Positions 15 to 42,857 of a DNA stretch of 64,000 nt are shown one piece after another. Under the pieces are notes generated by a model. It ran no database searches. It was not told the DNA's origin and saw only the letters and a list, made by a program, of their open reading frames with translations. Source of the DNA: Pseudomonas sp. NY15181 (GTDB lineage: Bacteria; Pseudomonadota; Gammaproteobacteria; Pseudomonadales; Pseudomonadaceae). Location: contig NZ_JBLUPT010000005.1 of the NCBI RefSeq assembly GCF_048068055.1, forward strand, positions 260,509-324,508. Reading direction: 5' to 3'. The first letter of the stretch is position 1. The number at the start of each line of letters is the position of its first letter. The translations under genes and the position numbers were made by a program.

Positions 15-2834
15 GTGCAGGCCGCGCTGGCCAAGCTGCCGCAGGAAGTGCGCCGGCAGGGCGTGAAGGTGCAGAAGAAGTCTTCGGACATCCTGCAGCT
101 GGTCATCCTGTACTCGCCGGACAACTCGGTCGATCCGGTGCAGATCAGCAACTACGCGCTGATCAACGTGATCGACGAACTCAAGCGCCTGCCCGGCGTG
201 GGTGACGTTACCCAGTTCGGCGCCAAGGACTACTCCATGCGCATCTGGCTGCGTCCGGACAAGCTGGCGCAGTACAACCTGACGCCGACCGATGTGGTCA
301 ACGCCATTCAAGAGCAGAACTCGCAGTTCGCCGCCGGCAACTTCGGCAAGGAACCGCTGAACACCCCGCAGGACTTCACCTATACGGTGAGCACCCAGGG
401 CCGCTTCTCCGATCCGAAACAGTTCGAGAGCATTATCCTGCGCACCGATAGCACCGGCGCCAGCCTGCTGCTCAAGGATGTCGCCCGGGTCGAACTGGGG
501 GCCCAGGACTACTCGATGAAGACCACCCTGAACGGCCAGCAGAACGCGGCCTTCGGGGTGTACCTGCAACCCGGCGCCAACGCCCTGGATACCGCCGAAG
601 CCGTGCGCAGCACCATGGAACGGCTGTCCAAGCGCTTCCCTCAGGGCATCGTCTACACCATCCCCTACGACACCACGGTGTTCGTGAAGGTGTCCATCGA
701 GGAGGTGGTGCACACCTTCTTCGAGGCCCTGGTGCTGGTGATGCTGGTGGTCTACCTGTTCCTGCAGAACGTGCGCGCCACCCTGATCCCGGTGCTGGCG
801 ATCCCGGTGTCGCTGGTCGGGACCTTCGCCGGCATGTACCTGCTGGGCTTCTCCATCAACCTCTTGACCCTGTTCGGCCTGGTGCTGGCGATCGGCATCG
901 TGGTCGACGACGCCATCGTGGTGCTGGAGAACGTCGAACGGGTGATGCGGACCGAGAAGCTCGGCCCTAGGGAAGCGGCGATCAAGGCGATGGAAGAGGT
1001 GACCGGACCGATCGTCGCCATCGTCCTGGTGCTCTGCGCAGTGTTCATTCCAGTGGGCTTCCTCGGTGGTCTCGCCGGGCAGATGTACCAGCAGTTCGCG
1101 ATCACCATCGCGGTGTCGGTGGTGATCTCCGGCATCGTCGCGCTCACGCTGTCGCCGGCGCTCTGCGCACTGATCCTCAAGCCCGAGCACAAGGAGCCGG
1201 CGGCACCCTTCCGCTGGTTCAACCGCATGTTCGACAAGGCCACCGAAGGCTACGGCGCGGGTGTGCAGTTCTTCCTCAAGCGCGCGTCCATCGGCCTGCT
1301 GCTGGTCGGTGGGATGATCGCGCTGATGGTGGTGCTGTTCGGCCGGGTGCCCGGCTCGCTGGTGCCAGACGAGGACCAGGGCTATGTGCTCAACGCCTAC
1401 ATCCTGCCGCCGGCTTCCTCGCTCAAACGCACCGAGGAGCTGACCGAGGCGGTCTCCGAGCAACTGCGCAAGCACCCGGCGGTCAAGGACGTGGTGACCT
1501 TCTCCGGTCTGAACATCCTGACCAACACCAACGTCACCAGTGCCGGCGTGTCCTTCGTGACGCTCAAGGACTGGAAGGAACGCGAGGAGCCGTCGCTGGA
1601 CGCGCGTAACCTGACGCGCACCTTCATGGGCTTGGGTATGCGCGAGCAGGACGGCATGACCCTGAGCTTCAACCCGCCGCCGATCACCGGCATGTCCACT
1701 ACCGGCGGCTTCGAGGCCTACATCCAGGACCGCAGCGGCGGCACTCCCGAGCAGTTGCAGGCCATCGTGCAGAAGTTCATGGCTGCGGCGGCCAAGCGCC
1801 CCGAACTGGCCGCCGTGACCACCACCTTCAACGCCGACGTGCCGCAGTACTACATCGACCTGGACCGCACCAAGGCGCGCGCGTTTGGCGTTGCGATCGA
1901 CGATGTGTTCACTGCCATGCAGTCCACCTTCGGCGCCTACTACGTCAACGACTTCAGCCTTTACGGTCGTACCTGGAAGGTGAACCTGCAGTCCGAGTCG
2001 GACTTCCGCCGCAAGCCGGATGATCTCAAACAGGTCTACGTGCGCTCCGCCACCGGCGACCTGGTGCCGCTCTCGACGCTGGTGCAGGTGCGCCGCATCC
2101 TCGGCCCGGACACCTTCTCGCGCTTCAACGTGTTCCCCGCAGCCAAGCTGCTCGGCGGTCCGGCACCGGGCTTCAGCTCCGGCCAGGCGCTGGCGGCGAT
2201 GCAGCAGGTGGCCGACCAGACCCTCGGCGAGGACTACATGCTGACCTGGATCGGTTCGGCCTACCAGGAGCTGGAAGCGCAGGGCTCAGGTGGCCAGGCA
2301 TTCATCTTCGGCCTGATCCTGGTGTTCCTCATCCTGGCGGCCCAGTACGAGCGCTGGTCGCTGCCGCTGGCGGTGGTCACCGCGGTGCCCTTCGCGGTAT
2401 TCGGCGCGATCCTCGCCATCTGGCTGCGCGGCATCGATAACGACGTGTACTTCCAGGTGGGTCTGGTGACGCTGATCGGCTTGGCGGCGAAGAACGCCAT
2501 CCTGATCATCGAGTTCGCCGTGCTCTGCCGCGAAGAGCAGGGCATGGGCCCGATGCAGGCGGCGCTGGAAGCGGCCAAGTTGCGCTTCCGCCCGATCGTC
2601 ATGACTTCGCTGGCCTTCATCCTGGGTTGCGTGCCGTTGGCGATCAGCTCCGGTGCGGGCTCGGCCAGCCGTCACTCGATCGGCACCGGGGTGATCGGCG
2701 GCATGCTCGCCGCGACCCTGCTGGCGACCTTCCTCATCCCGATGTTCTACATGCTGGTGGAGTCGCTGTCCGACAAGCTCTCCGCCCGCAAGAACAAGGG
2801 CAAGCCCGCGGAGGGCGAGGCCCACAAGGCCTGA
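15..2834 (+). CDS. RND multidrug efflux transporter permease (AcrB/MexB/MexF family), 5'-truncated at window start
   Basis: 939-aa ORF open to the window edge; 12-TM RND architecture with conserved AcrB-like motifs (e.g. '[18 protein letters not shown]', '[20 protein letters not shown]'); full-length would be ~1040 aa so ~100 aa are missing upstream. No outer-membrane factor gene follows. Confidence 0.9.
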
Positions 2835-2840
2835 AGCCAG

Positions 2841-2882
2841 GGCGGACCGGCAGCCCGCCGGTCCGCCTACCATCTTTTCGGG
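2841..2882 (+). terminator. rho-independent terminator downstream of RND gene
   Basis: GC hairpin GGCGGACCGGCAGCCCGCCGGTCCGCC followed by CATCTTTTCGGG immediately after the stop codon. Confidence 0.7.
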
Positions 2883-3022
2883 AATTGATTAGTGAGCTTG
2901 CTAATTTCCCGGCCATTGTCACAATGCAAGGCCTCGTCGCGTAGCGCTCTCGCGGCAGAACCTTGTACCCCGTCCGCCCAGGCGCCTGAGCCGCCACCGC
3001 CGGGGTGCGCCCAGGTGACTTC

Positions 3023-4198
3023 ATGAATCTGCGTATCCTGCTGATCCTTGGCGCCTTGAGCGCCTTCGGGCCGATGGCCATCGACTTCTATCTGCCCAGC
3101 TTCCCCGCGCTGGCGCATGCCTTCGACACCGACGTCGAGCATATTCAGCTGAGCCTGTCGGCGTACTTCGCCGGCCTGGCCATCGGCCAACTGCTCTACG
3201 GCCCGCTGGCGGATCGCGTTGGCCGGCGTATTCCGCTGCTGCTGGGGGTGAGCATCTTCACCCTGGCGTCGCTGGCCTGCGCCTTCGTGCCGAACCTCGA
3301 ATGGCTGATCGCTGCGCGTTTCGTCCAGGCGCTGGGTGGCTGCGCGGGCATGGTGATCTCGCGGGCGGTGGTGCGCGACCTGTGCGACCCGATCGCCGCC
3401 GCCAGGGCCTTTTCGCAACTGATGCTGGTGATGGGGCTGGCGCCGATTCTCGCGCCGCTGGGGGGCGGACTGCTGCTGAACCTGTCCGGCTGGCAGTCGA
3501 TCTTCTTCTGCCTGACGCTGTTCAGCGCGCTGGCCGGTGCGGCCATTGCCCTGTGGTTGCCCGAAACCATCCCGGCCGGTCCGCGCGCGCCCTTGCGTGG
3601 GGCGGGGCGGCAGTACCTGGCGCTGTTCTCCGATCGCTCCTTCCTCACCTATGCGCTGACCGGCGGCGTCGCCGTCGCGGGGATGTTCTCCTATATCGCC
3701 GGCTCGCCCTTCGTGTTCATCCAGCTCTATGGCGTGCCGGCCGAGCACTATGGCTGGATCTTCGGCAGCAATGCGGCGGGCTTCATCCTGATGGCGCAGG
3801 TGAACGCGCGGCTGCTGCGCTATCGCGGGCCGGGTTTCTGGTTGCGCAGGGCGGTGTGGGTGTACTTCGCCTGCGGCGCGATGCTGCTGGCGATCACCCT
3901 GGCCAGGCCGGCGCAGCTGTGGCCGCTGCTGATCCCGCTGTTTGGCGCCATCGCCTGCCTGGGCTTCCTGCTGCCCAATGCCTCGGCCTGTGCCATGGCC
4001 AGCCAGGGGCGACACGCCGGAAGCGCGTCGGCCCTGATGGGTAGCCTGCAGTTCACCGTGGCGGCGGGCGCCTCGGCGCTGGTCGGCGCCCTGCATGATG
4101 GTTCGGCGCTACCGATGGCCCTGGTGATCACCGGCTGCGGGCTGGCCGCCGCGCTACTCGGCTGGTCCAGCGGACAGATCAGTGAACGCGCCGCCTGA
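3023..4198 (+). CDS. MFS transporter, Bcr/CflA drug-resistance subfamily
   Basis: ORF track 3005..4198 begins with GTG; ATG at 3023 gives MNLRILLILGALSAFGPMAIDFYLPSFP...GRRIPLL, typical Bcr/CflA N-terminus; 12 predicted TM segments. Confidence 0.85.
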   Translation: MNLRILLILGALSAFGPMAIDFYLPSFPALAHAFDTDVEHIQLSLSAYFAGLAIGQLLYGPLADRVGRRIPLLLGVSIFTLASLACAFVPNLEWLIAARFVQALGGCAGMVISRAVVRDLCDPIAAARAFSQLMLVMGLAPILAPLGGGLLLNLSGWQSIFFCLTLFSALAGAAIALWLPETIPAGPRAPLRGAGRQYLALFSDRSFLTYALTGGVAVAGMFSYIAGSPFVFIQLYGVPAEHYGWIFGSNAAGFILMAQVNARLLRYRGPGFWLRRAVWVYFACGAMLLAITLARPAQLWPLLIPLFGAIACLGFLLPNASACAMASQGRHAGSASALMGSLQFTVAAGASALVGALHDGSALPMALVITGCGLAAALLGWSSGQISERAA

Positions 4199-4491
4199 GC
4201 GGCATCAGCCAGCAGCGTGCTGGCGCAACTCGGGCAACTGGTGCGGGGCCCGCAAGCGGGCTTCCAGGGTCTCGACGAAGGAGCGAGCTTCCCGCTCGCT
4301 GCGGAAGCCGACGGCCTGTTGATCCAGGCAGACTTCCCAAGGCTGATTCTTGTTGGCGGAGGACGGGCGAACGAGGATGTGCATGACGGGGCACCCCTGT
4401 GCGGTCGTTAGAAGGGAGTCTCAGTGTAGTCCTGTCATCGAACGGTAAGGGGTGCGACGCAAGGTCGCCGACAACCGGCCTGCCCTCTCCC

Positions 4492-5373
4492 TCATGCCCC
4501 GCCGCGGCCCTGGCTCAGGCGCCTGCGGTAGGCGCTGGGCGAGAGCCCCATGACCTTGCTGAAAAGTCTTGAAAAGTAATAGCTGTCGTCATAGCCCACG
4601 GCCTGGCTGACCTGGGCGATGCCGCAGCTGCTGCTGTCCAGCAATTGGCAGGCGTATTCGATTTTCAGGTGCAGGAAGTGCTGGATCGGCGTGCGTCCGG
4701 TGAGCGCCCGGTAGCGGTTGACGAAGTGGAACTTGGAGAGGTTGCAGAAGGCCGCCAGCTGCGGCAGTTCCAGGCGCTGGTGGAGGTTGTCGCGCATGTA
4801 GGCGTGCAGGCCGTCCAGGTCGAGCCCGGCGTCGCGCACCGGGCGCAGCAGCGGCAGTTGGCAGAGCAGGGCACGCAGGCGGCTGGCGGCGAGGAGGAAG
4901 GGTTGGAAGCGGTAGCCGCTCAGGCGCGCCTCCAGCAATTGGGCGAAACCGCTGACCAGGGTGTGCTGCAGGCCCCAGTGGCGTACCGGCGAATCTCCGT
5001 AGCCGGCGGCATGGCGCAGCCAGTCGGCGCCGTCGCCGCGCAGGTGTACCCAGTGGATAGTCCAGGGGTTGGCGGGATCGGCATGGTAGGCGTGGGGCAC
5101 GCCCGGTGGCAGCCAGATCAGGTCGCCACAGCCGACGGCCTGGGTTTGCCCGTCGACGAGGAGCTCGCCCTGGCCTTCGCTGCAGTAGATCAGCAGGTGG
5201 TCGTCGTGCTGCTCCCGGCTCATCTGGTGGTCGCGGGCGCGGCGATAGTGGCCCAGTGAGCTGGGATAGAGGTCTCGGCTGAGCGGGTGGGTGGCGAGCT
5301 TCTGCAGCAGCGTCGGCGGCAGCACCAGGCGCAGGCTGTCGGCGGGAAGGGGCCAGTCCGAGGTTCTCGACAT
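4492..5373 (-). CDS. AraC/XylS-family transcriptional regulator with N-terminal cupin-like sensing domain
   Basis: C-terminal HTH_AraC signature (IAQVSQAVGYDDSYYFSRLFSKVMGLSPSAYRRR); divergent from acyl-CoA synthetase gene. Confidence 0.85.
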   Translation of the reverse strand: MSRTSDWPLPADSLRLVLPPTLLQKLATHPLSRDLYPSSLGHYRRARDHQMSREQHDDHLLIYCSEGQGELLVDGQTQAVGCGDLIWLPPGVPHAYHADPANPWTIHWVHLRGDGADWLRHAAGYGDSPVRHWGLQHTLVSGFAQLLEARLSGYRFQPFLLAASRLRALLCQLPLLRPVRDAGLDLDGLHAYMRDNLHQRLELPQLAAFCNLSKFHFVNRYRALTGRTPIQHFLHLKIEYACQLLDSSSCGIAQVSQAVGYDDSYYFSRLFSKVMGLSPSAYRRRLSQGRGGA

Positions 5374-5604
5374 ACGGGTAGTCCGCTCAGCAATTTAATC
5401 CAGCAAGAGCACAATTTAGTCGATCATCGGCTCCCTGTGCGGGTGATAGCTTTGCCCTTGCGTGGAATGTTCCGCCGTCGCTCCCGCAATAAAAGCCGGC
5501 TGCTACCTGAGAACGGCCGGCATACGACCAAAGGTTGATGGTGGGGTGGTTAACCCCGGCCATACTCGTTGTTCGACCTCGATAACAACAAATAAGAGGC
5601 TCAG

Positions 5605-28702: not shown

Positions 28703-29728
28703 TCAAGCCGGCGTGATCGCGATGTGCTGCCCGTCTGCCGTCGTCGGCTGGCAGTGGATGCGTACCGGCAGAAAGGCCTCGATGACCGCGCGGTTGCACC
28801 GCAGGTGATCGCTCAGCAGCGGTGTGGTGAAGCTGCCGCCGCCGGCCAGGGCCATCGGCAGCAACAACTGGTCCGCCAGGTGCTCGTCCACGGCGGTACC
28901 GCTGCCGCGCCACGCATCGGCCTGCCGCAGCGCCTGGTCGGCGACCCGCTCGGCGCTGATGCCCGGCTGGCCGAAGGCGCAGAACACCAGTGTCAGGTGT
29001 TCGCACTCGATATCCAGCAGCAGGGCGTTACCCGGTCCCTGGTCTTCGGGCAGGCGTACCACCTTGGTGCTGGCAGTGCTCCATCCCTTGTGGCGGCGGA
29101 CTCGCTCCATCTCGCGCTCGGCGACGTGGCCGGGCACGCCCGTCAGCAGGACGCGGGCTGAACGCGAGCGCTCGGGCCCCACCTCCATCAGATGCAACGG
29201 CTGCAGTTCGCCGGGCTGCACGCGCACTGCCAGCTCGCCGCCACCGGCCGGCATGAAGCCGTGGCGCAGCAGCTCGAAATCCACGTGCGCACCCATGCGC
29301 CGCAGCAGCGGCAGCCAACTGCGCTCGATGAAGTCCGCCGGCGGCGCCAGCGGGTTGTGGGTGCCGCCGCTGATCGCAAGGCGGCTCGGTGCATCGGCGA
29401 ACAGCAGCGCTGGCAGCAGGGTTTGCAGCACCAGCACGGCGCTGCCCGCGCTGCCGATGGTGAAGCGGTAGTCGCCGCCGTGGATCGCACCGGGGCGGAA
29501 GGTCAGGCTGCGCGAACCCAGCTCCGCACCATCCACCGCCGCCCCGCTGATTTCCGCTGCCGCCCGCACCGCCGTCAGGTGCTGACGCAACAGCCCCGGC
29601 CGTGAGCGCCGGCCACGGATATTGACGATGCGCAGCGCCTTGCCGGTGATCATCGACAGGCTCAGCGCGCTGCGCAGGATCTGCCCGCCGCCTTCGGCGC
29701 CATCGAGTTCGATCAGGTCCTTGTTCAT
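28703..29728 (-). CDS. rtcA: RNA 3'-terminal phosphate cyclase
   Basis: 341 aa; N-terminal LDGAEGGGQILRSALSLSMITGKALRIVNIRGRR characteristic of RtcA; conserved His-containing region ...RFTIGSAGS. Confidence 0.9.
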   Translation of the reverse strand: MNKDLIELDGAEGGGQILRSALSLSMITGKALRIVNIRGRRSRPGLLRQHLTAVRAAAEISGAAVDGAELGSRSLTFRPGAIHGGDYRFTIGSAGSAVLVLQTLLPALLFADAPSRLAISGGTHNPLAPPADFIERSWLPLLRRMGAHVDFELLRHGFMPAGGGELAVRVQPGELQPLHLMEVGPERSRSARVLLTGVPGHVAEREMERVRRHKGWSTASTKVVRLPEDQGPGNALLLDIECEHLTLVFCAFGQPGISAERVADQALRQADAWRGSGTAVDEHLADQLLLPMALAGGGSFTTPLLSDHLRCNRAVIEAFLPVRIHCQPTTADGQHIAITPA

Positions 29729-29780: not shown

Positions 29781-31001
29781 CTATCCCTTCACGCACACCA
29801 CCTGACGCAGGGTATGCAGCACTTCCACCAGCTCGCGCTGGGCGTTCATCACCGCGTCGATGTCCTTGTAGGCCATGGGGATCTCGTCGATCACATCCTT
29901 GTCCTTTCGGCATTCGACGTGGGCGGTGGCGCGCACCTGGTCTTCCACGGTGAACAGCTTCTTGGCGCGGGTTCGGCTCATGGTCCGGCCGGCGCCGTGG
30001 CTGCACGAGCAGAAGGCCTCCTCGTTACCCAGCCCGCGGACGATGAAGCTCTTGGCACCCATCGAGCCGGGGATGATCCCGAGTTCGCCCTTCTGCGCGG
30101 ACACCGCGCCCTTGCGGGTCACCAGGATCTCTTCGCCAAAGTGGCGTTCCTTCTGCACGTAGTTGTGGTGGCAGTTCACCGCTTCCAGGCTGGCCTCGAA
30201 CGGCTTGCGGATCACTTGCCGAGCGGCGGCGATCACCGCGCGCATCATCAGCTCGCGGTTCTGCCGGGCGAAGTCCTGGGCCCAGCCCACGGCTTCCACA
30301 TAGTCGTCGAAGTGCCGGCTGCCTTCCTCGAAGTAGGCCAGGTCGCGGTCCGGCAGGTTGGCGATGTGCTGGCGCATATCGGCCTGGGCCAGTTCGATGA
30401 ACAGGTTGCCGATGGCATTGCCCACGCCGCGCGACCCGCTGTGCAGCATGAACCACACGCGGTCGGCCTCGTCGAGGCAGACCTCGATGAAGTGGTTGCC
30501 GGTCCCGAGGGTTCCCAGGTGGTGGCGGTTGTTGGTCTTCTCCAGCTTCGGGTACTTGCCGGTGATCGCCTTGAAGCGGCCGGCCAGTGCCTTCCAGGCG
30601 TCATCGGCGTGCTCCGGTACGTTCTCCCAGGCGCCCTGGTCGCGGCGGCCGAAGGTCTTGCCGTGGGGCACGGCCTTCTCGATGGCGCTGCGCAGGCCGT
30701 GCAGGTTGTCCGGCAGGTCGGCCGCCATCAGCGAGGTGCGTGCGGCGATCATGCCGCAGCCGATATCCACGCCGACCGCAGCCGGGATGATCGCGCCCCG
30801 GGTGGGGATCACGCTGCCGATGGTCGAGCCTTTGCCCAGGTGCACGTCCGGCATCACGGCCAGGTGCTTGAAGATGAACGGCATCTTCGCGGTGTTCATC
30901 AGTTGCTGGCGGGCGTCCTCCTCCACCGGCACGCCCTGGGTCCAGAGCTTGATCGGCTTGCCGTTGGCGACTTCCAGCAGTTGGAACGTGGTGTTTTTCA
31001 T
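29781..31001 (-). CDS. rtcB: RNA-splicing ligase RtcB
   Basis: Track ORF extends to 31142; ATG at 31001 gives MKNTTFQLLEVANGKPIKLWTQGVPVEE..., 406 aa; conserved motifs HLGKGSTIGSV, PGSMG, CSCSHGAGR, HNYV. Confidence 0.9.
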   Translation of the reverse strand: MKNTTFQLLEVANGKPIKLWTQGVPVEEDARQQLMNTAKMPFIFKHLAVMPDVHLGKGSTIGSVIPTRGAIIPAAVGVDIGCGMIAARTSLMAADLPDNLHGLRSAIEKAVPHGKTFGRRDQGAWENVPEHADDAWKALAGRFKAITGKYPKLEKTNNRHHLGTLGTGNHFIEVCLDEADRVWFMLHSGSRGVGNAIGNLFIELAQADMRQHIANLPDRDLAYFEEGSRHFDDYVEAVGWAQDFARQNRELMMRAVIAAARQVIRKPFEASLEAVNCHHNYVQKERHFGEEILVTRKGAVSAQKGELGIIPGSMGAKSFIVRGLGNEEAFCSCSHGAGRTMSRTRAKKLFTVEDQVRATAHVECRKDKDVIDEIPMAYKDIDAVMNAQRELVEVLHTLRQVVCVKG

Positions 31002-31396
31002 GCGCTGAATCTCTTTGGTTCGGGGGCGAGCTGACCGGGAGCGGGTTGCGCCCGGCCGTCGCGAATTCGTTTGTTCAATCGGCACGCTCGGCAGCGTATG
31101 GCCGTGGAATAGACCTGCCCTTTGCAGTCCTCGTACCACCACTTCTGCTGTGCGGCGGTCCAGGTTTCCCGGGCTCCGCAGTCCTGGCAGGTAAAGGTCT
31201 TATCCTCGTACCAACCGCGCCGGACAAAAAGTGGATCGCCATAGCTGTTGTAAGGCGCCAGGTTGGAGCGGCTGACCGGGAAGGTGCCCACGGGGCCGGC
31301 TGGGGCCATGGGCTGTTCAATGGGCCGAGTCTTCCTCGCCTTGCGACGTTCTCGCGCCAGGCGAATTTCCCGCCGGCGTTGCTTGTTGCTTTTCAC
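30998..31396 (-). CDS. small basic zinc-ribbon protein encoded in the rtc operon
   Basis: 132 aa, GTG start behind AAGGAGAAGG RBS; Arg/Lys-rich N-terminus (KQRRREIRLARERRKARKTR) and two CxxC pairs (CQDCG ... CRAC); stop overlaps rtcB start (ATGA). Confidence 0.6.
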   Translation of the reverse strand: MKSNKQRRREIRLARERRKARKTRPIEQPMAPAGPVGTFPVSRSNLAPYNSYGDPLFVRRGWYEDKTFTCQDCGARETWTAAQQKWWYEDCKGQVYSTAIRCRACRLNKRIRDGRAQPAPGQLAPEPKRFSA

Positions 31397-31427: not shown

Positions 31428-32573
31428 TCAGGCCTGCTTCAGCGTTACCAGTCCATTCAACACCTGATCCAGGCCGCCGAATACCGAGATGCGGTCGATC
31501 CGCTCGGCCACCCGTTCCAGGGTTTCCAGTTCCTTCAGGCGCAGGGCGGTGGGGTTTTCTTCCATCACCTTGGCCGTGTTCAGCAGCGAGCGGGTCGCCG
31601 AGGTTTCCTCGCGGCGGCGGATCACGTTGGCCTGCGCGGCCTTCTCCGCTTCCACCACCTGGGCCAGCAGCGCCTTCATCTCGCCCGGCAGGATGATGTC
31701 GCGCACGCCCAGTCCGCTGACCTCGATGCCGGTGCCGGACAGCCGTTCCTTGAGGTGGGCGCCGACCGACTCGTCGATGAGCTGCTTGTTCTCCAGCAGT
31801 TCATCCAGCGAGCGGGTGCCCACCGCCGCCCGCAGGCCGAACTGCAGCTCGCGGTACAGGTGCTCCAGCGGCTTGGACAGGCGCGAGTACGCCATCAGTA
31901 CGTCGCTGTAGTGCCAGTTGGCGGCCAGGTTCAGGCGCAGGCTCACCTTGTCGCGGGTGAGGATTTCCTGGCCGCTGACTTCCAGCGCCTGGATACGGGT
32001 GTCGATCAGCTCCACGCTCACCTGGCGGTTGTAGCGCCAGAAGCCGTACTGGCCCGCCGGCAGCAGTTCGACGACCGCGCCGTCGACCTTCAGTACGCCG
32101 ACCTGGTAGGCCGGCACTTGCGCCATCAGTACCGCGTCCAGGCCGGCGAGGCTGCGGCCGCGCAGGTTAGGCTGGCTCAGTTGGGCCAGCAGCGGGGCGG
32201 CCAGCCGGTAGTCCTGGCTCAGGTCGATGCGCTCCAGGCGCTGTTCGGTCTGGCCCTTCCAGTACAGCCGGCGGCTGCCCGGCGGCAGGATTTCCGCCAG
32301 CACGCCGTCTTCGAAGCGCAGGCCTGCTTCGTTCTCGGTCAGGTCCATGCGGGTGAAGTAGCGTTCGACCAGTGCAGGTTCGGACTGGCGCAGGTAACCG
32401 GCCAGGCGGTGCTCGAACAGCGGGGTGTTCAGGCTGAAGGTTTCCACGCTCAGGCGGTTGTACAGGTCCAGATGGCGGTGGATGCCCGGCTCGAGGAGGG
32501 CCAGGAAATCGCCTTCGGAGTACAGCAGGCCGCGTTCGTTCTTTTTCACGGTAAAGCGCTTCAGCAGTTTCAT
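31428..32573 (-). CDS. SPFH/band-7 (slipin/HflK-C-like) domain protein encoded in the rtc operon
   Basis: Track ORF 31428..32825 over-extended; ATG at 32573 with AGGAAGAGAG RBS gives MKLLKRFTVKKNERGLLYSEGDF..., 381 aa, PHB/band-7 core followed by C-terminal coiled-coil (VEAEKAAQANVIRRREETSA). Confidence 0.7.
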   Translation of the reverse strand: MKLLKRFTVKKNERGLLYSEGDFLALLEPGIHRHLDLYNRLSVETFSLNTPLFEHRLAGYLRQSEPALVERYFTRMDLTENEAGLRFEDGVLAEILPPGSRRLYWKGQTEQRLERIDLSQDYRLAAPLLAQLSQPNLRGRSLAGLDAVLMAQVPAYQVGVLKVDGAVVELLPAGQYGFWRYNRQVSVELIDTRIQALEVSGQEILTRDKVSLRLNLAANWHYSDVLMAYSRLSKPLEHLYRELQFGLRAAVGTRSLDELLENKQLIDESVGAHLKERLSGTGIEVSGLGVRDIILPGEMKALLAQVVEAEKAAQANVIRRREETSATRSLLNTAKVMEENPTALRLKELETLERVAERIDRISVFGGLDQVLNGLVTLKQA

Positions 32574-32854
32574 TTCTCTCTTCCTTCTTTTCTCTTGTCC
32601 TGGTGCCGGTGCTTGCCGGCCCGCCGGGTGGCGCGGATGGAGCCTGCGAGAGGCGGGCGCTGCGGACGTCCTGTCCAGGCGGCCGATTCCTTCGGCCAGC
32701 GTCTGCCTTGTCGCAAGCCCGGTCCGCGTACCGGGCGGGCCGGCGGTGGCTGCGGGTCCTTGGCGTATCCGGCCGTCCTGGCCTCGTTTTGCCTGTCCCG
32801 TCGCCGCACCGGCGGGGTGTTGCATTCATGCGTAACTGCCGTGGGAGGGCAGTG

Positions 32855-32926
32855 TTCGAGCGGGAGTCGAACCCGCGACAGGCCATTTCGTGGATGGCTG
32901 CTCTAACCGGACTGAGCTATCGAACT
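32855..32926 (-). ncRNA. tRNA-Arg(ACG)-like module (non-canonical: C33, A1-A72 mismatch, no CCA)
   Basis: Minus-strand reading AGTTCGA-TA-GCTC-AGTCCGGTTA-GAGC-A-GCCAT-CCACGAA-ATGGC-CTGTC-GCGGG-TTCGACT-CCCGC-TCGAACA folds as a complete cloverleaf with perfect D-, anticodon- and T-arms; canonical T-loop TTCGA. Confidence 0.6.
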
Positions 32927-32997
32927 GCGCGGGCAGGATTCGAACCTGCGACCTCTCCCTCGAAGGGGGGGGCTCTACCGGGCTGAGCTACCGCGCA
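32927..32997 (-). ncRNA. tRNA-Arg-like module (anticodon region UCG; anticodon arm defective)
   Basis: Minus-strand TGCGCGG-TA-GCTC-AGCCCGGTA-GAGC-C-CCCCC-CTTCGA(G)-GGAGA-GGTC-GCAGG-TTCGAAT-CCTGC-CCGCGCA: perfect 7-bp acceptor, D- and T-arms. Scaffold (AGGTC variable loop, CAGGTTCGAATCCTG T-arm) matches the P. aeruginosa tRNA-Arg(CCG) sequence as recalled from memory, but the anticodon stem/loop has a mismatch and an apparent 1-nt loss; abuts module A with zero spacer. Confidence 0.55.
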
Positions 32998-33116
32998 ATC
33001 GACCGTGACTGCTGCAGCGGCATGCACGAAGCCGACACCAGGGGTGGGCTCGGGCACCGGCGGGAATTGGAGTCCCTGCCCGTGGGCTGCATCAGCGATG
33101 CGGTCGAGAGGGATAT

Positions 33117-33134
33117 AGCGAGGGGCGTGCCAGG
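33117..33134 (-). promoter_or_regulatory. sigma54 (-24/-12) promoter reading toward the tRNA-like modules and rtc operon
   Basis: Minus-strand TGGCACGCCCCTCGCT (consensus TGGCAC-N5-TTGCW: perfect -24, GC at -12, correct spacing) in the rtcR-divergent intergenic region; RtcR is a sigma54 enhancer-binding protein. Confidence 0.6.
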
Positions 33135-33279: not shown

Positions 33280-34884
<1,605 letters not shown>

Positions 34885-42698: not shown

Positions 42699-42744
42699 TT
42701 CCCGAAGGTTCGCTGCGGAGCGCCATCCTTGGCGACTCCGCAGG

Positions 42745-42772
42745 AAAAGGGGCGCTTCGGCGTCCCTTTGTG
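42745..42772 (+). terminator. rho-independent terminator after fklB
   Basis: AAAAGGGGCGCTTCGGCGTCCCTTTGTG. Confidence 0.7.
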
Positions 42773-42857
42773 CATCCGCCTCCCGGGCGGCGGAGCACCG
42801 ACGACGCGTCCTGCGCCGTCGTAAACGCTTAATTGCACCCGCTTTTCTAGGCACCGT

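Follow-up and report, generated by a model that had tools for sequence, protein, structure and literature searches.

The stretch of DNA analyzed here (the window, 64,000 nucleotides of Pseudomonas sp. NY15181) carries an Rtc RNA-repair operon on its minus strand. Pfam searches identified on this strand, in downstream order, a Band-7/SPFH ('slipin') gene (31428-32573, 381 aa), a gene for a small basic Zn-ribbon protein (zf_Tbcl, treble clef; 30998-31396), the RNA ligase gene rtcB (29781-31001; Pfam RtcB, E = 8.9e-130) and the RNA 3'-phosphate cyclase gene rtcA (28703-29728; Pfam RTC and RTC_insert), while rtcR, which encodes a sigma54 activator with a CARF-type RtcR domain, is divergent (33280-34884, plus strand; Pfam RtcR 1e-85, Sigma54_activat 6e-49). 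The Band-7 gene starts at the ATG at 32573, which is preceded by the ribosome-binding site aaggaag, and homologues are 376-382 aa long. A longer open reading frame of 465 aa (31428-32825) extends into the leader and was rejected as an artefact of the ORF finder. The translation points to the ATG at 31001 as the likely start of rtcB, which would overlap the Zn-ribbon gene's stop codon. The proteins encoded within 4 kb are RtcR, an Lnb_N/DUF7840 protein, Band-7, the Zn-ribbon protein, RtcB and RtcA; no TROVE/Ro60 (Rsr) domain was found among them by Pfam, as the preliminary description of this DNA had stated.

Upstream of the Band-7 gene, a pattern match located a sigma54-type promoter with the -24/-12 element TGGCACGCCCCTCGC (33118-33132, minus strand), from which transcription is predicted to start near 33107. 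Between this promoter and the Band-7 gene, ARAGORN reported two tRNA-like genes on the minus strand, at 32852-32926 (module A, anticodon ACG) and 32924-32998 (module B, anticodon TCG), with 3 nt in common; no further tRNA was found in the window. Module B lies about 109 nt downstream of the predicted start, and the Band-7 gene begins 279 nt downstream of the tRNA-like unit. Neither a terminator nor a known processing site was found on the minus strand between the structured RNA and the Band-7 coding sequence. The position that the preliminary description had assigned to the two units, between a sigma54 promoter and the SPFH, Zn-ribbon, rtcB and rtcA genes of the same strand, was thus confirmed.

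Against the Rfam tRNA model RF00005 (gathering score 29), module B (32925-32997, minus strand) scored 52.4 bits (E = 2.2e-8 for the whole window) and module A (32852-32926, minus strand) scored 48.8 bits when searched alone, because in whole-window scans it is masked by the overlapping module B. Both are above the Rfam threshold and show a cloverleaf with D- and T-arms and the conserved elbow nucleotides, so the claim of two abutting cloverleaves on this strand was recovered by two programs. In both modules the D- and T-stems pair perfectly. The loop of module A is CCACGAA, with C at position 33, and the acceptor stem of this module has 6 bp and, at 1:72, an A-A mismatch, against 7 bp in a canonical tRNA; C33, the A-A clash and the perfect stems had all been described correctly. 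Module B has a 7-bp acceptor with G32925 at the discriminator position, and an anticodon arm of 16 nt with a UUCG-type cap and two C-A mismatches. A 3' CCA was searched for after both modules and is absent in both, and nucleotide 32926 is at once position 72 of module B and position 1 of module A, in agreement with the earlier reading. Overall the modules overlap by 1-3 nt, and nucleotides 72-73 of module A belong to the next helix, P1. Because of the shared nucleotides, both units cannot mature intact.

The two modules are part of a leader of about 500 nt that begins at the RtcR/sigma54 promoter and stops about 30 nt short of the Band-7 start codon. In the window it comprises two 5' hairpins, module B, module A, an anticodon-arm-like hairpin (P1) and a 3' domain, all on the minus strand; the general order among related loci is a 5' domain, a D-armless mini-tRNA, the tRNA-like unit, the anticodon-arm-like hairpin and the 3' domain. 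Hairpin S1 (33059-33080, GGC.GGGA / UCCC.GCC) was found by RNAalifold, with compensatory changes at 5/7 pairs and 96.6% of cells paired, and the long hairpin S2 (33019-33058, GGUGC... with ...GCAUGCC) has 12/17 compensatory pairs and 93.3% of cells paired. P1 (32835-32853, 6 bp, loop CUCCCAC) starts with nucleotides 72-73 of module A, so that the acceptor of B, the acceptor of A and P1 abut without spacers. The 3' domain (32605-32813) is closed by long-range helices (32807-32813/32605-32611, 32728-32745/32614-32632 and 32707-32720/32640-32652), and its two long helices have compensatory changes at 15/16 and 9/11 pairs; a separate test of this domain on 26 loci gave the same covariation outcome. 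For the whole leader, the RNAalifold consensus contains 12 conserved helices and 84 pairs, 57 of them compensatory, with 95.1% of cells paired (34-47% when the partners were slid) and a covariation score of 0.50 (at most 0.10 when slid). The leader of the window folds with z = -3.5, and its minimum-energy fold matches most of the consensus helices. That the leader is a structured RNA is therefore well supported by covariation in the aligned sequences. None of the conserved helices includes the ribosome-binding site, which lies in an unpaired, A/G-rich stretch. Outside the tRNA-like modules, no Rfam family matched the leader, even at E values up to 10. The triplets of the variable loops of module A and P1, compared by eye for kissing in the window and in loci L001-L003, are non-complementary. 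Some leaders are of a 'type II', in which GGUC-GAAA-GACC is followed by ACCCGCCGAACG.

Conservation was assessed in a comparison set of 80 Band-7 loci (of about 600 or more). The element was found at the same place in 70 of the 80, in beta- and gamma-proteobacteria, and in most of these 70 the family model R1, to which module A scores 79.7 bits, located the unit at a distance of 225-360 nt upstream of the Band-7 gene. In essentially all rtcR-linked loci the tRNA-like unit has its 3' end 255-288 nt downstream of the promoter element. In the cloverleaf, 90% of cells were paired (33-43% with partners slid), all five anticodon-stem pairs (5/5) show compensatory changes, and no variation is seen in the D-stem, G18-G19 or the T-loop UUC.A. 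The acceptor stem mostly has just 4-5 bp, its outer three pairs being formed in only 29-53% of members. A T-arm hairpin occurs within 75 nt upstream of module A in 63/70 loci, which indicates that the two-module design is ancestral. In the window's Pseudomonas clade module B is a full cloverleaf; orthologues of this form were present only in loci L001-L007, and in most other taxa its slot is occupied by a mini-tRNA without a D-arm. A hairpin at the place of P1 is present in nearly all loci; 29 of these hairpins have seven-nucleotide loops, which start with CU in 26/29 and have A at loop position 6 in 27/29, and 28 other loci have tetraloops.

RtcB is encoded downstream of Band-7 in most related loci, and the Zn-ribbon gene was found in only a subset of them. 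The preliminary description had raised the co-occurrence of the RNA with rtcR and rtcB. The part concerning rtcB usually held, but the RNA and Band-7, usually together with RtcB, are also kept in at least 13 loci in which no rtcR lies within 6 kb upstream, and the proposed link of the RNA to sensing by RtcR is not supported. The tRNA-like modules are absent from the Band-7 Rtc operons of enterobacteria and of P. entomophila/P. soli, and no YrlA or other RNA was found in these module-less operons of enterics and P. entomophila. Module B is also missing from P. aeruginosa. The modules are therefore dispensable for Band-7/RtcB in some lineages. A search for leader homologues on phages and plasmids returned only orthologous Burkholderia replicons and generic tRNA similarity.

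The apparent anticodons show a diverse pattern. Among 65 proximal units, 29 have seven-nucleotide loops, in which no fewer than 13 different 'anticodons' occur, and 21 have tetraloops (8 UUCG and 10 GNRA, the latter 5 GCAA and 5 GAAA). A uniform amino-acid identity for the family was rejected in view of the 13 different triplets and the many tetraloops. The NNU triplets GAU and CAU are the commonest among the seven-nucleotide loops, and we read their prevalence as ancestry rather than function. About half of the proximal units, and likewise of the P1 hairpins, retain an anticodon-loop signature (U33, A37), and UUCG or GNRA tetraloops cap roughly one third of the proximal units and about 40% of the P1 hairpins. 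Relatives whose Band-7 proteins are 91-92% identical have CGAAGGA, CCAGAAG or UUCG at the same position, so the 'tRNA-Arg-like' identity given to the units at first does not hold; with an unconserved 'anticodon' that is often a UUCG or GNRA tetraloop, 'Arg' is accidental and the units are not decoding tRNAs. In several species of the window's own clade both arms are capped by tetraloops. The mismatches in the anticodon arm of module B are present, but the reading of this arm as 'damaged' is not supported, a 6-bp stem with a tetraloop being the normal design of the clade.

Units of this kind are already known. Burroughs & Aravind (2016) predicted a tRNA associated with band 7 (b7a-tRNA), which, as summarized in a later account (bioRxiv 10.1101/312249), strongly resembles real tRNA, adjoins Band-7 and RtcB genes, was proposed as a counterpart of YrlA and was unvalidated as of 2018. 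Module A, a tRNA-like RNA beside a Band-7/SPFH gene with rtcB in the same operon, corresponds to this description, and the tRNA-like units as such are b7a-tRNA of Band-7-type RtcB operons. The novelty claimed in the preliminary description is not supported. The published summary of b7a-tRNA mentions only a tRNA-like RNA; a second module upstream, the short acceptor stem, tetraloops in place of the loop, P1 and a leader of about 500 nt are further features seen here. No Rfam family for b7a-tRNA was found. The second known relative is PA4581.1 ('tRNA-Arg4') of P. aeruginosa PAO1, located between rtcR and the rtc cluster, which lacks CCA, in contrast to the five remaining tRNA-Arg genes of P. aeruginosa, and was discussed in 2026 as an odd tRNA-Arg that is detectable by qRT-PCR and whose level does not rise upon induction of the Rtc proteins (PMC13637947). 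In the P. aeruginosa locus of our set (L081), positions 2656-2729 share 89.3% identity with module A, have its CCACGAA loop and lack CCA, in the orthologous position between rtcR and Band-7, and the leaders align over 420/570 columns. The P. aeruginosa locus differs in having module A only, with a simple hairpin in place of module B, and an operon with RlaP instead of the Zn-ribbon gene. Module A is very probably the orthologue of PA4581.1, and both units are very probably b7a-tRNA-type modules, neither of them decoding.

The YrlA RNAs of other Rtc operons invite comparison, as the preliminary description had suggested. The Rfam YrlA model (RF02553, gathering score 69 bits) gave a partial match at 32900-32953 of 27.6 bits (E = 0.0011, model positions 27-81 of 114), which spans the T-arm of module B into the D-arm of module A. 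Chen et al. (2014) required an Rsr/Ro60 (TROVE) gene within about 4 kb of a YrlA candidate and explicitly filtered dimeric-tRNA false positives out of their searches; the match across the B/A junction is such a false positive. The acceptor-closing hairpin that YrlA forms between its T- and D-arms was looked for, and the junction segment between B and A does not pair. With the low score, the partial cover of the model and no Rsr gene within 4 kb, membership in the YrlA/Y RNA family is highly improbable. The likeness is one of concept: both are non-decoding tRNA-shaped RNAs with a conserved D-loop/T-loop elbow inside an RtcR-controlled repair operon, and to this extent the idea of tRNA mimics in the operon leader, analogous to YrlA, stands. 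YrlA differs in topology, with one permuted tRNA-like domain carried by a Ro-binding stem rather than modules A and B, and its partner gene is Rsr rather than Band-7.

An AlphaFold model of the Band-7 protein (pLDDT 82, pTM 0.60, built from 13 sequences) contains no membrane segment. It aligned with stomatin (E = 1.5e-14) and, over 410-437 columns, with major vault protein (E = 2.6e-11), and on this single model the protein resembles major vault protein. The alignment with the latter covers the whole length (N-terminal beta repeats, the SPFH 'shoulder' and the long helix), and the Band-7 gene adjoins a small structured RNA; the parallel with the eukaryotic vault particle and its small vault RNAs is an analogy only. 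Band-7 has 381 aa against about 800-900 aa in major vault protein, and vault RNAs are not tRNA-like.

The leader RNA is best explained, in our tentative view, as a b7a-type protein-binding scaffold for the Band-7/RtcB module. It would be made with the operon, may or may not be cut from the transcript, and would fold into a tRNA-shaped scaffold or cofactor. Band-7 would be a soluble, vault-protein-like oligomer, and Band-7 and/or RtcB would bind the RNA, probably at its invariant D-loop/T-loop elbow. Band-7 and its leader RNA would then correspond to the particle of Rsr (Ro60) and YrlA in Salmonella-type Rtc operons. We infer the transcription as one RNA, the binding of protein and the role in repair, and the scaffold or cofactor mechanism taken by itself is slightly more tentative than the account as a whole. 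The persistence of the RNA beside Band-7, and usually RtcB, in the rtcR-less loci favours the scaffold account. The lineages without the modules tell against it. That PA4581.1 does not rise with Rtc induction fits poorly with simple sigma54 co-transcription, although qRT-PCR of tRNA-like RNAs is imprecise. It is conceivable, but unlikely, that the multi-domain RNA of about 500 nt, which may be new to the literature, and the soluble, major-vault-protein-like Band-7 form a vault-like ribonucleoprotein working with RtcB.

The same anatomy is equally compatible with a purely cis-acting role, as no terminator or processing site precedes Band-7. The leader would then be a 5' UTR that controls its own operon mRNA with no function in trans, as a stabilising 5' structure, as an RNase P or RNase E signal setting the 5' end of the mRNA, or as a sensor linking Band-7 translation to some factor. 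The RNA is invariably found between the promoter and the Band-7 start codon, the distances being fixed, its last helix is about 30 nt before that codon beside the ribosome-binding site, and the structured region is followed on the same strand by no terminator. tRNA-like units are natural RNase P substrates, which would suit a processing signal. For the YrlA of M. smegmatis, cleavage by RNase P has been shown (PMC4201824). However, the ribosome-binding site is outside the conserved helices with no obvious on/off switch visible, about 500 nt with 12 helices and an invariant tRNA elbow exceed the needs of a stabiliser or a cleavage site, and YrlA and YrlB of Salmonella are also encoded inside their operon yet bind Rsr in trans (PMC4201824; bioRxiv 10.1101/312249). 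We regard a purely cis-acting leader as an unlikely but serious alternative. Less probable still is a mimic of repair substrates, whether a decoy for anticodon nucleases, a built-in substrate of RtcB/RtcA or, an idea from the preliminary description, a source of cyclic-phosphate tRNA fragments that activate the CARF domain of RtcR. In Salmonella, tRNA fragments with a 2',3'-cyclic phosphate end activate RtcR, and a competitive-inhibitor role has been proposed for YrlA, but YrlA is not cleaved by the Salmonella nuclease (PMC7790460). The U33/A37 signature kept in about half of the proximal units and P1 hairpins would suit such a mimic. The UUCG or GNRA tetraloops of roughly one third of the units and about 40% of the hairpins cannot imitate an anticodon loop, and the RNA persists in the rtcR-less loci.

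The remaining readings, on which the units would be ordinary or decayed tRNA genes, are much less probable. Annotation pipelines take such units for genuine tRNA-Arg genes (ACG and UCG isoacceptors), both modules pass ARAGORN and the Rfam threshold, and the P. aeruginosa orthologue is annotated as tRNA-Arg and detectable (PMC13637947). Against decoding stand the missing CCA, present in the other five tRNA-Arg genes of P. aeruginosa (PMC13637947), the overlap of the two units, the C33 and 6-bp acceptor of module A, the mismatched 16-nt arm of module B, and orthologues whose anticodons are unconserved or replaced by tetraloops; decoding is thus scarcely credible. Functionless pseudogenes, kept by chance beside the rtc operon, are suggested by the anticodon-arm mismatches of B and the A-A pair of A when these are seen in isolation. 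Decay is contradicted by the covariation, since the units lie at the same place in 70/80 loci with many compensatory changes and an invariant elbow, and A72-C73 of module A is used by the conserved helix P1, which leaves this reading very little probability.

Annotation pipelines label these units as tRNA-Arg, as tRNAs for other amino acids or as 'undetermined', which inflates tRNA counts, and the 'arginine link' discussed for PA4581.1 in 2026 (PMC13637947) is an example of how such a label misleads. The covariation-backed leader could become an RNA family model. Pseudomonas is genetically tractable, and a two-module RNA beside a small vault-protein-like gene offers a concrete system for the study of tRNA-shaped RNAs in repair.

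Across the 64-kb window, ARAGORN called only two tRNAs, both on the minus strand in the leader of the rtc operon (the stretch from the promoter to the Band-7 start): the downstream unit, module A (32852–32926, "Arg" ACG), and the upstream unit, module B (32924–32998, "Arg" TCG), which overlap by 3 nt. With the Rfam tRNA model (gathering score 29), module B (32925–32997) scored 52.4 bits and module A (32852–32926), when searched alone, 48.8 bits; in the initial Rfam scans, module A was masked solely by its overlap with module B. The element is real and had been correctly described. Perfect D- and T-stems are visible in both modules, position 1 of module A is also position 72 of module B, CCA is absent from both, and module A carries the loop CCACGAA (C33) and an A-A clash at 1:72. 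The clash arises because A72 pairs in the next helix, P1, a hairpin 3' of module A.

The preliminary description had recognized both modules as Arg-like and module B as damaged in the anticodon arm by a mismatch and the apparent loss of one nucleotide. In same-clade species with Band-7 proteins 91–92% identical to that of the window, the module A loop is CGAAGGA, CCAGAAG or CCACGAA, and module B has a 6-bp stem with a UUCG-type cap. Because of these variable loops and UUCG-type caps, the "Arg" identity proved to be a coincidence, the anticodon varying among close relatives, and the 16-nt arm of module B represents a normal 6+4+6 design; the supposed nucleotide loss is thus dismissed, while two C-A mismatches were indeed seen and are the sole feature peculiar to the window genome. 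The window also encodes the ordinary known sRNA RsmW (Rfam RF02809, 100.1 bits, 42705–42825, minus strand). Since RsmW is present and Band-7 proteins of P. nitroreducens-group strains are 98% identical to that of the window, the window belongs to the P. aeruginosa/nitroreducens lineage.

With a profile of 13 Band-7 homologues, 80 loci were retrieved from beta- and gamma-proteobacterial genomes, and tRNA-like units were detected by combining ARAGORN with a regular expression and with a covariance model (R1) built from 73 units. A unit was present upstream of Band-7 on the same strand in 70 of the 80 loci, typically at a distance of 225–360 nt. Cloverleaf pair cells held standard pairs in 90% of cases (33–43% when the 3' partners were slid), and compensatory changes were found in the anticodon stem at all five pairs and in the T-stem at three, showing that selection acts on the cloverleaf. 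No variation was seen across units in the D-stem, G18-G19 or the T-loop; therefore, the tRNA elbow is the most constrained part. The family differs from tRNAs in its acceptor stem (inner four pairs formed in 89–99% of members, outer three in 29–53%), its unconserved "anticodon" and its loop type. A 7-nt loop occurs in 29 of 65 Band-7-proximal units (23 with U33, 22 with A37, 13 different triplets), and a tetraloop on a longer stem in 21 (8 UUCG and 10 GNRA, namely 5 GCAA and 5 GAAA). ARAGORN identities range over Ser, Leu, Arg, Met, Ile, Thr, Val, Asn, Phe, Cys, Lys, Trp, stop and undetermined, and CCA was not found in the family. These tRNA-like units are non-decoding.

Among the compared loci, the full two-cloverleaf tandem is confined to seven Pseudomonas relatives (L001–L007) and one Casimicrobiaceae genome. 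The two-module plan is nevertheless general, as 63 of the 70 loci have a T-arm hairpin (NNNNG-UUCGANU-CNNNN) in the 75 nt preceding module A; thus, module B of the window is the full-cloverleaf form of a conserved slot. Many of these upstream segments fold as a mini-tRNA without D-arm, in which a 5–7-bp acceptor-like stem encloses one hairpin (often GNRA-capped) and the T-arm, ending 2–13 nt short of module A. By eye, the acceptor-like stem covaries (GGCGU/ACGCC, GGCGA/UCGCC, GGUGA/UCACC, GUGCAA/UUGCAC and GUGUAA/UUACAC). Weak matches to the tRNA-like model, mostly of the T-arm only, were also detected downstream of Band-7 (L010 7588–7604, L029 7347–7363, L063 7362–7382, L015 5649–5702, L070 7376–7430, L058 11868–11932 and 12026–12091); in the loci checked for this (L010, L015 and L058), they immediately precede rtcB, which hints at more tRNA-derived hairpins within the operon.

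In the alignments, sequence conservation extends into both flanks of the modules. An RNAalifold consensus of 21 leaders, from predicted start to ATG, contained 84 pairs, 57 of them compensatory. Standard pairs made up 95.1% (34–47% for slid partners), the covariation score was 0.50 (against at most 0.10), and none of 500 column shuffles reached the observed values; the 3' domain, tested independently in 26 loci, gave the same result. On the minus strand of the window, the consensus places two 5'-domain hairpins, S1 (33059–33080) and S2 (33019–33058), before modules B and A, followed by P1 (32835–32853) and a 3' domain (32605–32813) closed by three long-range helices (32807–13 with 32605–11, 32728–45 with 32614–32, and 32707–20 with 32640–52). 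The window leader folded alone (−250.9 kcal/mol, z = −3.5) reproduced most consensus helices. Because P1 starts at nt 72–73 of module A, the acceptor stems of B and A and P1 are contiguous without spacer. Across loci, P1 is a 5–6-bp stem with an anticodon-type 7-nt loop or a GNRA-capped stem (28 loci); the 7-nt loops start with CU in 26 of 29 cases and have A at position 6 in 27 of 29, with a variable middle triplet. In a second leader type (Comamonadaceae and relatives), the 5' domain and modules are shared but the 3' part differs, consisting of GGUC-GAAA-GACC followed by ACCCGCCGAACG. Apart from the tRNA model, no Rfam family matched any part of the leader.

The proposed sigma54 promoter was located upstream as a −24/−12 element, TGGCACGCCCCTCGC, at 33132–33118 (minus strand), with module B about 109 nt downstream of the predicted transcription start (near 33107). 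Downstream genes on the same strand were also as described (Band_7/SPFH, zf_Tbcl Zn-ribbon, rtcB and rtcA), with rtcR divergent. Band-7 starts at the ATG at 32573, which is preceded by a good ribosome-binding site and lies 279 nt from module A; the longest ORF (31428–32825, minus strand), starting at 32825, extends into the structured leader by 252 nt and was rejected. The distance between the sigma54 promoter and the module A 3' end is nearly constant in rtcR-linked loci, at 255–288 nt. Farther upstream than the sigma54 element, an AT-rich stretch holds a sigma70-like match (GAGACA-17-AATAAT, 9/12, 33216–33188, minus strand), which could drive RtcR-independent basal transcription of the leader or may be due to chance.

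The usual gene order is rtcR (divergent), leader, Band-7, an optional Zn-ribbon gene, RtcB, other genes and RtcA. Of the loci whose upstream sequence is complete (6 kb), at least 13 lack rtcR, and these retain the 5' domain, both modules, Band-7 and usually RtcB. Conversely, neither a tRNA-like module nor YrlA, the tRNA-mimicking Y RNA of Rsr-containing Rtc operons, was found in six enterobacterial loci (L056, L069, L072, L073, L077 and L079) or in P. entomophila (L008) and P. soli (L065), where rtcR and Band-7 are present and rtcB is detectable within range in about half or more; in L008 and L065 the leader is reduced to the 5' domain. It follows that the RNA goes with Band-7/RtcB and not with RtcR, and that it is not indispensable. 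Common to rtcR-less loci is the motif TGGCCGCGCGCCTGC (GG-N10-GC spacing), which precedes the 3' end of the tRNA-like unit by 292–315 nt (L028 2984, L034 267, L035 5454, L038 5463, L040 1110, L043 5441, L054 5462 and L066 5439); this motif may represent another type of sigma54 promoter or a piece of the RNA. Additionally, many rtcR-less Burkholderiales genomes have, immediately before the leader and in its orientation, 2–15 ordinary-looking tRNA genes (L019, L024, L027, L028, L035, L037, L039, L040, L052, L054, L071, L074 and L066, whose 15 tRNAs at 1686–4714 are interspersed with a PcfJ-like gene at 2704–4155 and an HNH endonuclease gene at 4673–5476). Together with the leader, Band-7 and usually RtcB, these arrays have the appearance of a mobile island combining 'spare tRNAs' with tRNA repair.

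The element had been considered the most likely novel system of the window, a claim that fails, as it is a known, named prediction (b7a-tRNA, the Band-7-associated tRNA-like RNA of RtcB operons; Burroughs & Aravind, 2016) and an annotated gene in P. aeruginosa. According to bioRxiv 10.1101/312249 (discussion), b7a-tRNA had been put forward as functionally redundant with YrlA and had not received experimental validation. The P. aeruginosa orthologue of module A is annotated as tRNA-Arg4 (PA4581.1), with rtcR on one side and the rtc cluster on the other; it has no CCA and an unusual D-loop, its level by qRT-PCR is about half that of ordinary tRNAs, and this level is unchanged upon strong induction of Rtc proteins (PMC13637947, 2026). 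Such constancy poorly fits simple co-transcription, and high stability or an extra promoter may account for it. The P. aeruginosa locus (L081, 2342–3003) has a single unit at 2656–2729, 89% identical to module A of the window and with the same CCACGAA loop, whereas a plain hairpin, cggtcattcgcgaatgacg, stands in place of module B, which has been lost there. Its operon comprises Band-7, RtcB, RlaP (PF10127) and RtcA and, unlike that of the window, lacks the Zn-ribbon gene.

The Band-7 protein of the window (31428–32573, minus strand; 381 aa) was modelled by AlphaFold (pLDDT 82, pTM 0.60) with beta-strand domains at the N-terminus, an SPFH domain and a long helix, and the model shows no hydrophobic N-terminal anchor of the kind usual in SPFH proteins. 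Foldseek against PDB matched stomatin over about 228 columns (E = 1.5e-14) and major vault protein over the whole length (410–437 columns, E = 2.6e-11). The titles of the matched PDB entries describe SPFH proteins and vault protein as assembling into large rings or cages. A soluble putative cage-former encoded beside a structured RNA calls to mind the vault, an analogy that is purely inferential. Several database homologues (P0030, P0043, P0048, P0053 and others) measure 509–591 aa against about 380, reflecting either a real N-terminal extension (in L049, L065 and L067 the match begins near residue 150) or mis-called starts.

A conserved structured RNA with two tRNA-shaped modules thus lies between the sigma54 promoter and Band-7 and is linked to Band-7/RtcB. 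We tentatively favor a role as scaffold or cofactor, in which Band-7 and/or RtcB would bind the leader RNA via the invariant elbow, as a counterpart of Rsr–YrlA. The main rival, a purely cis-acting leader for processing, stability or translation of the mRNA, agrees with the absence of a terminator and the fixed geometry, and is held to be rather unlikely. That the RNA acts as decoy, substrate or RtcR signal is improbable, since both the tetraloop variants and the loci without rtcR detract from this role. The extent and architecture of the RNA, as well as the vault-protein likeness of its partner, may be new. The leader and its neighbors form a tractable system.
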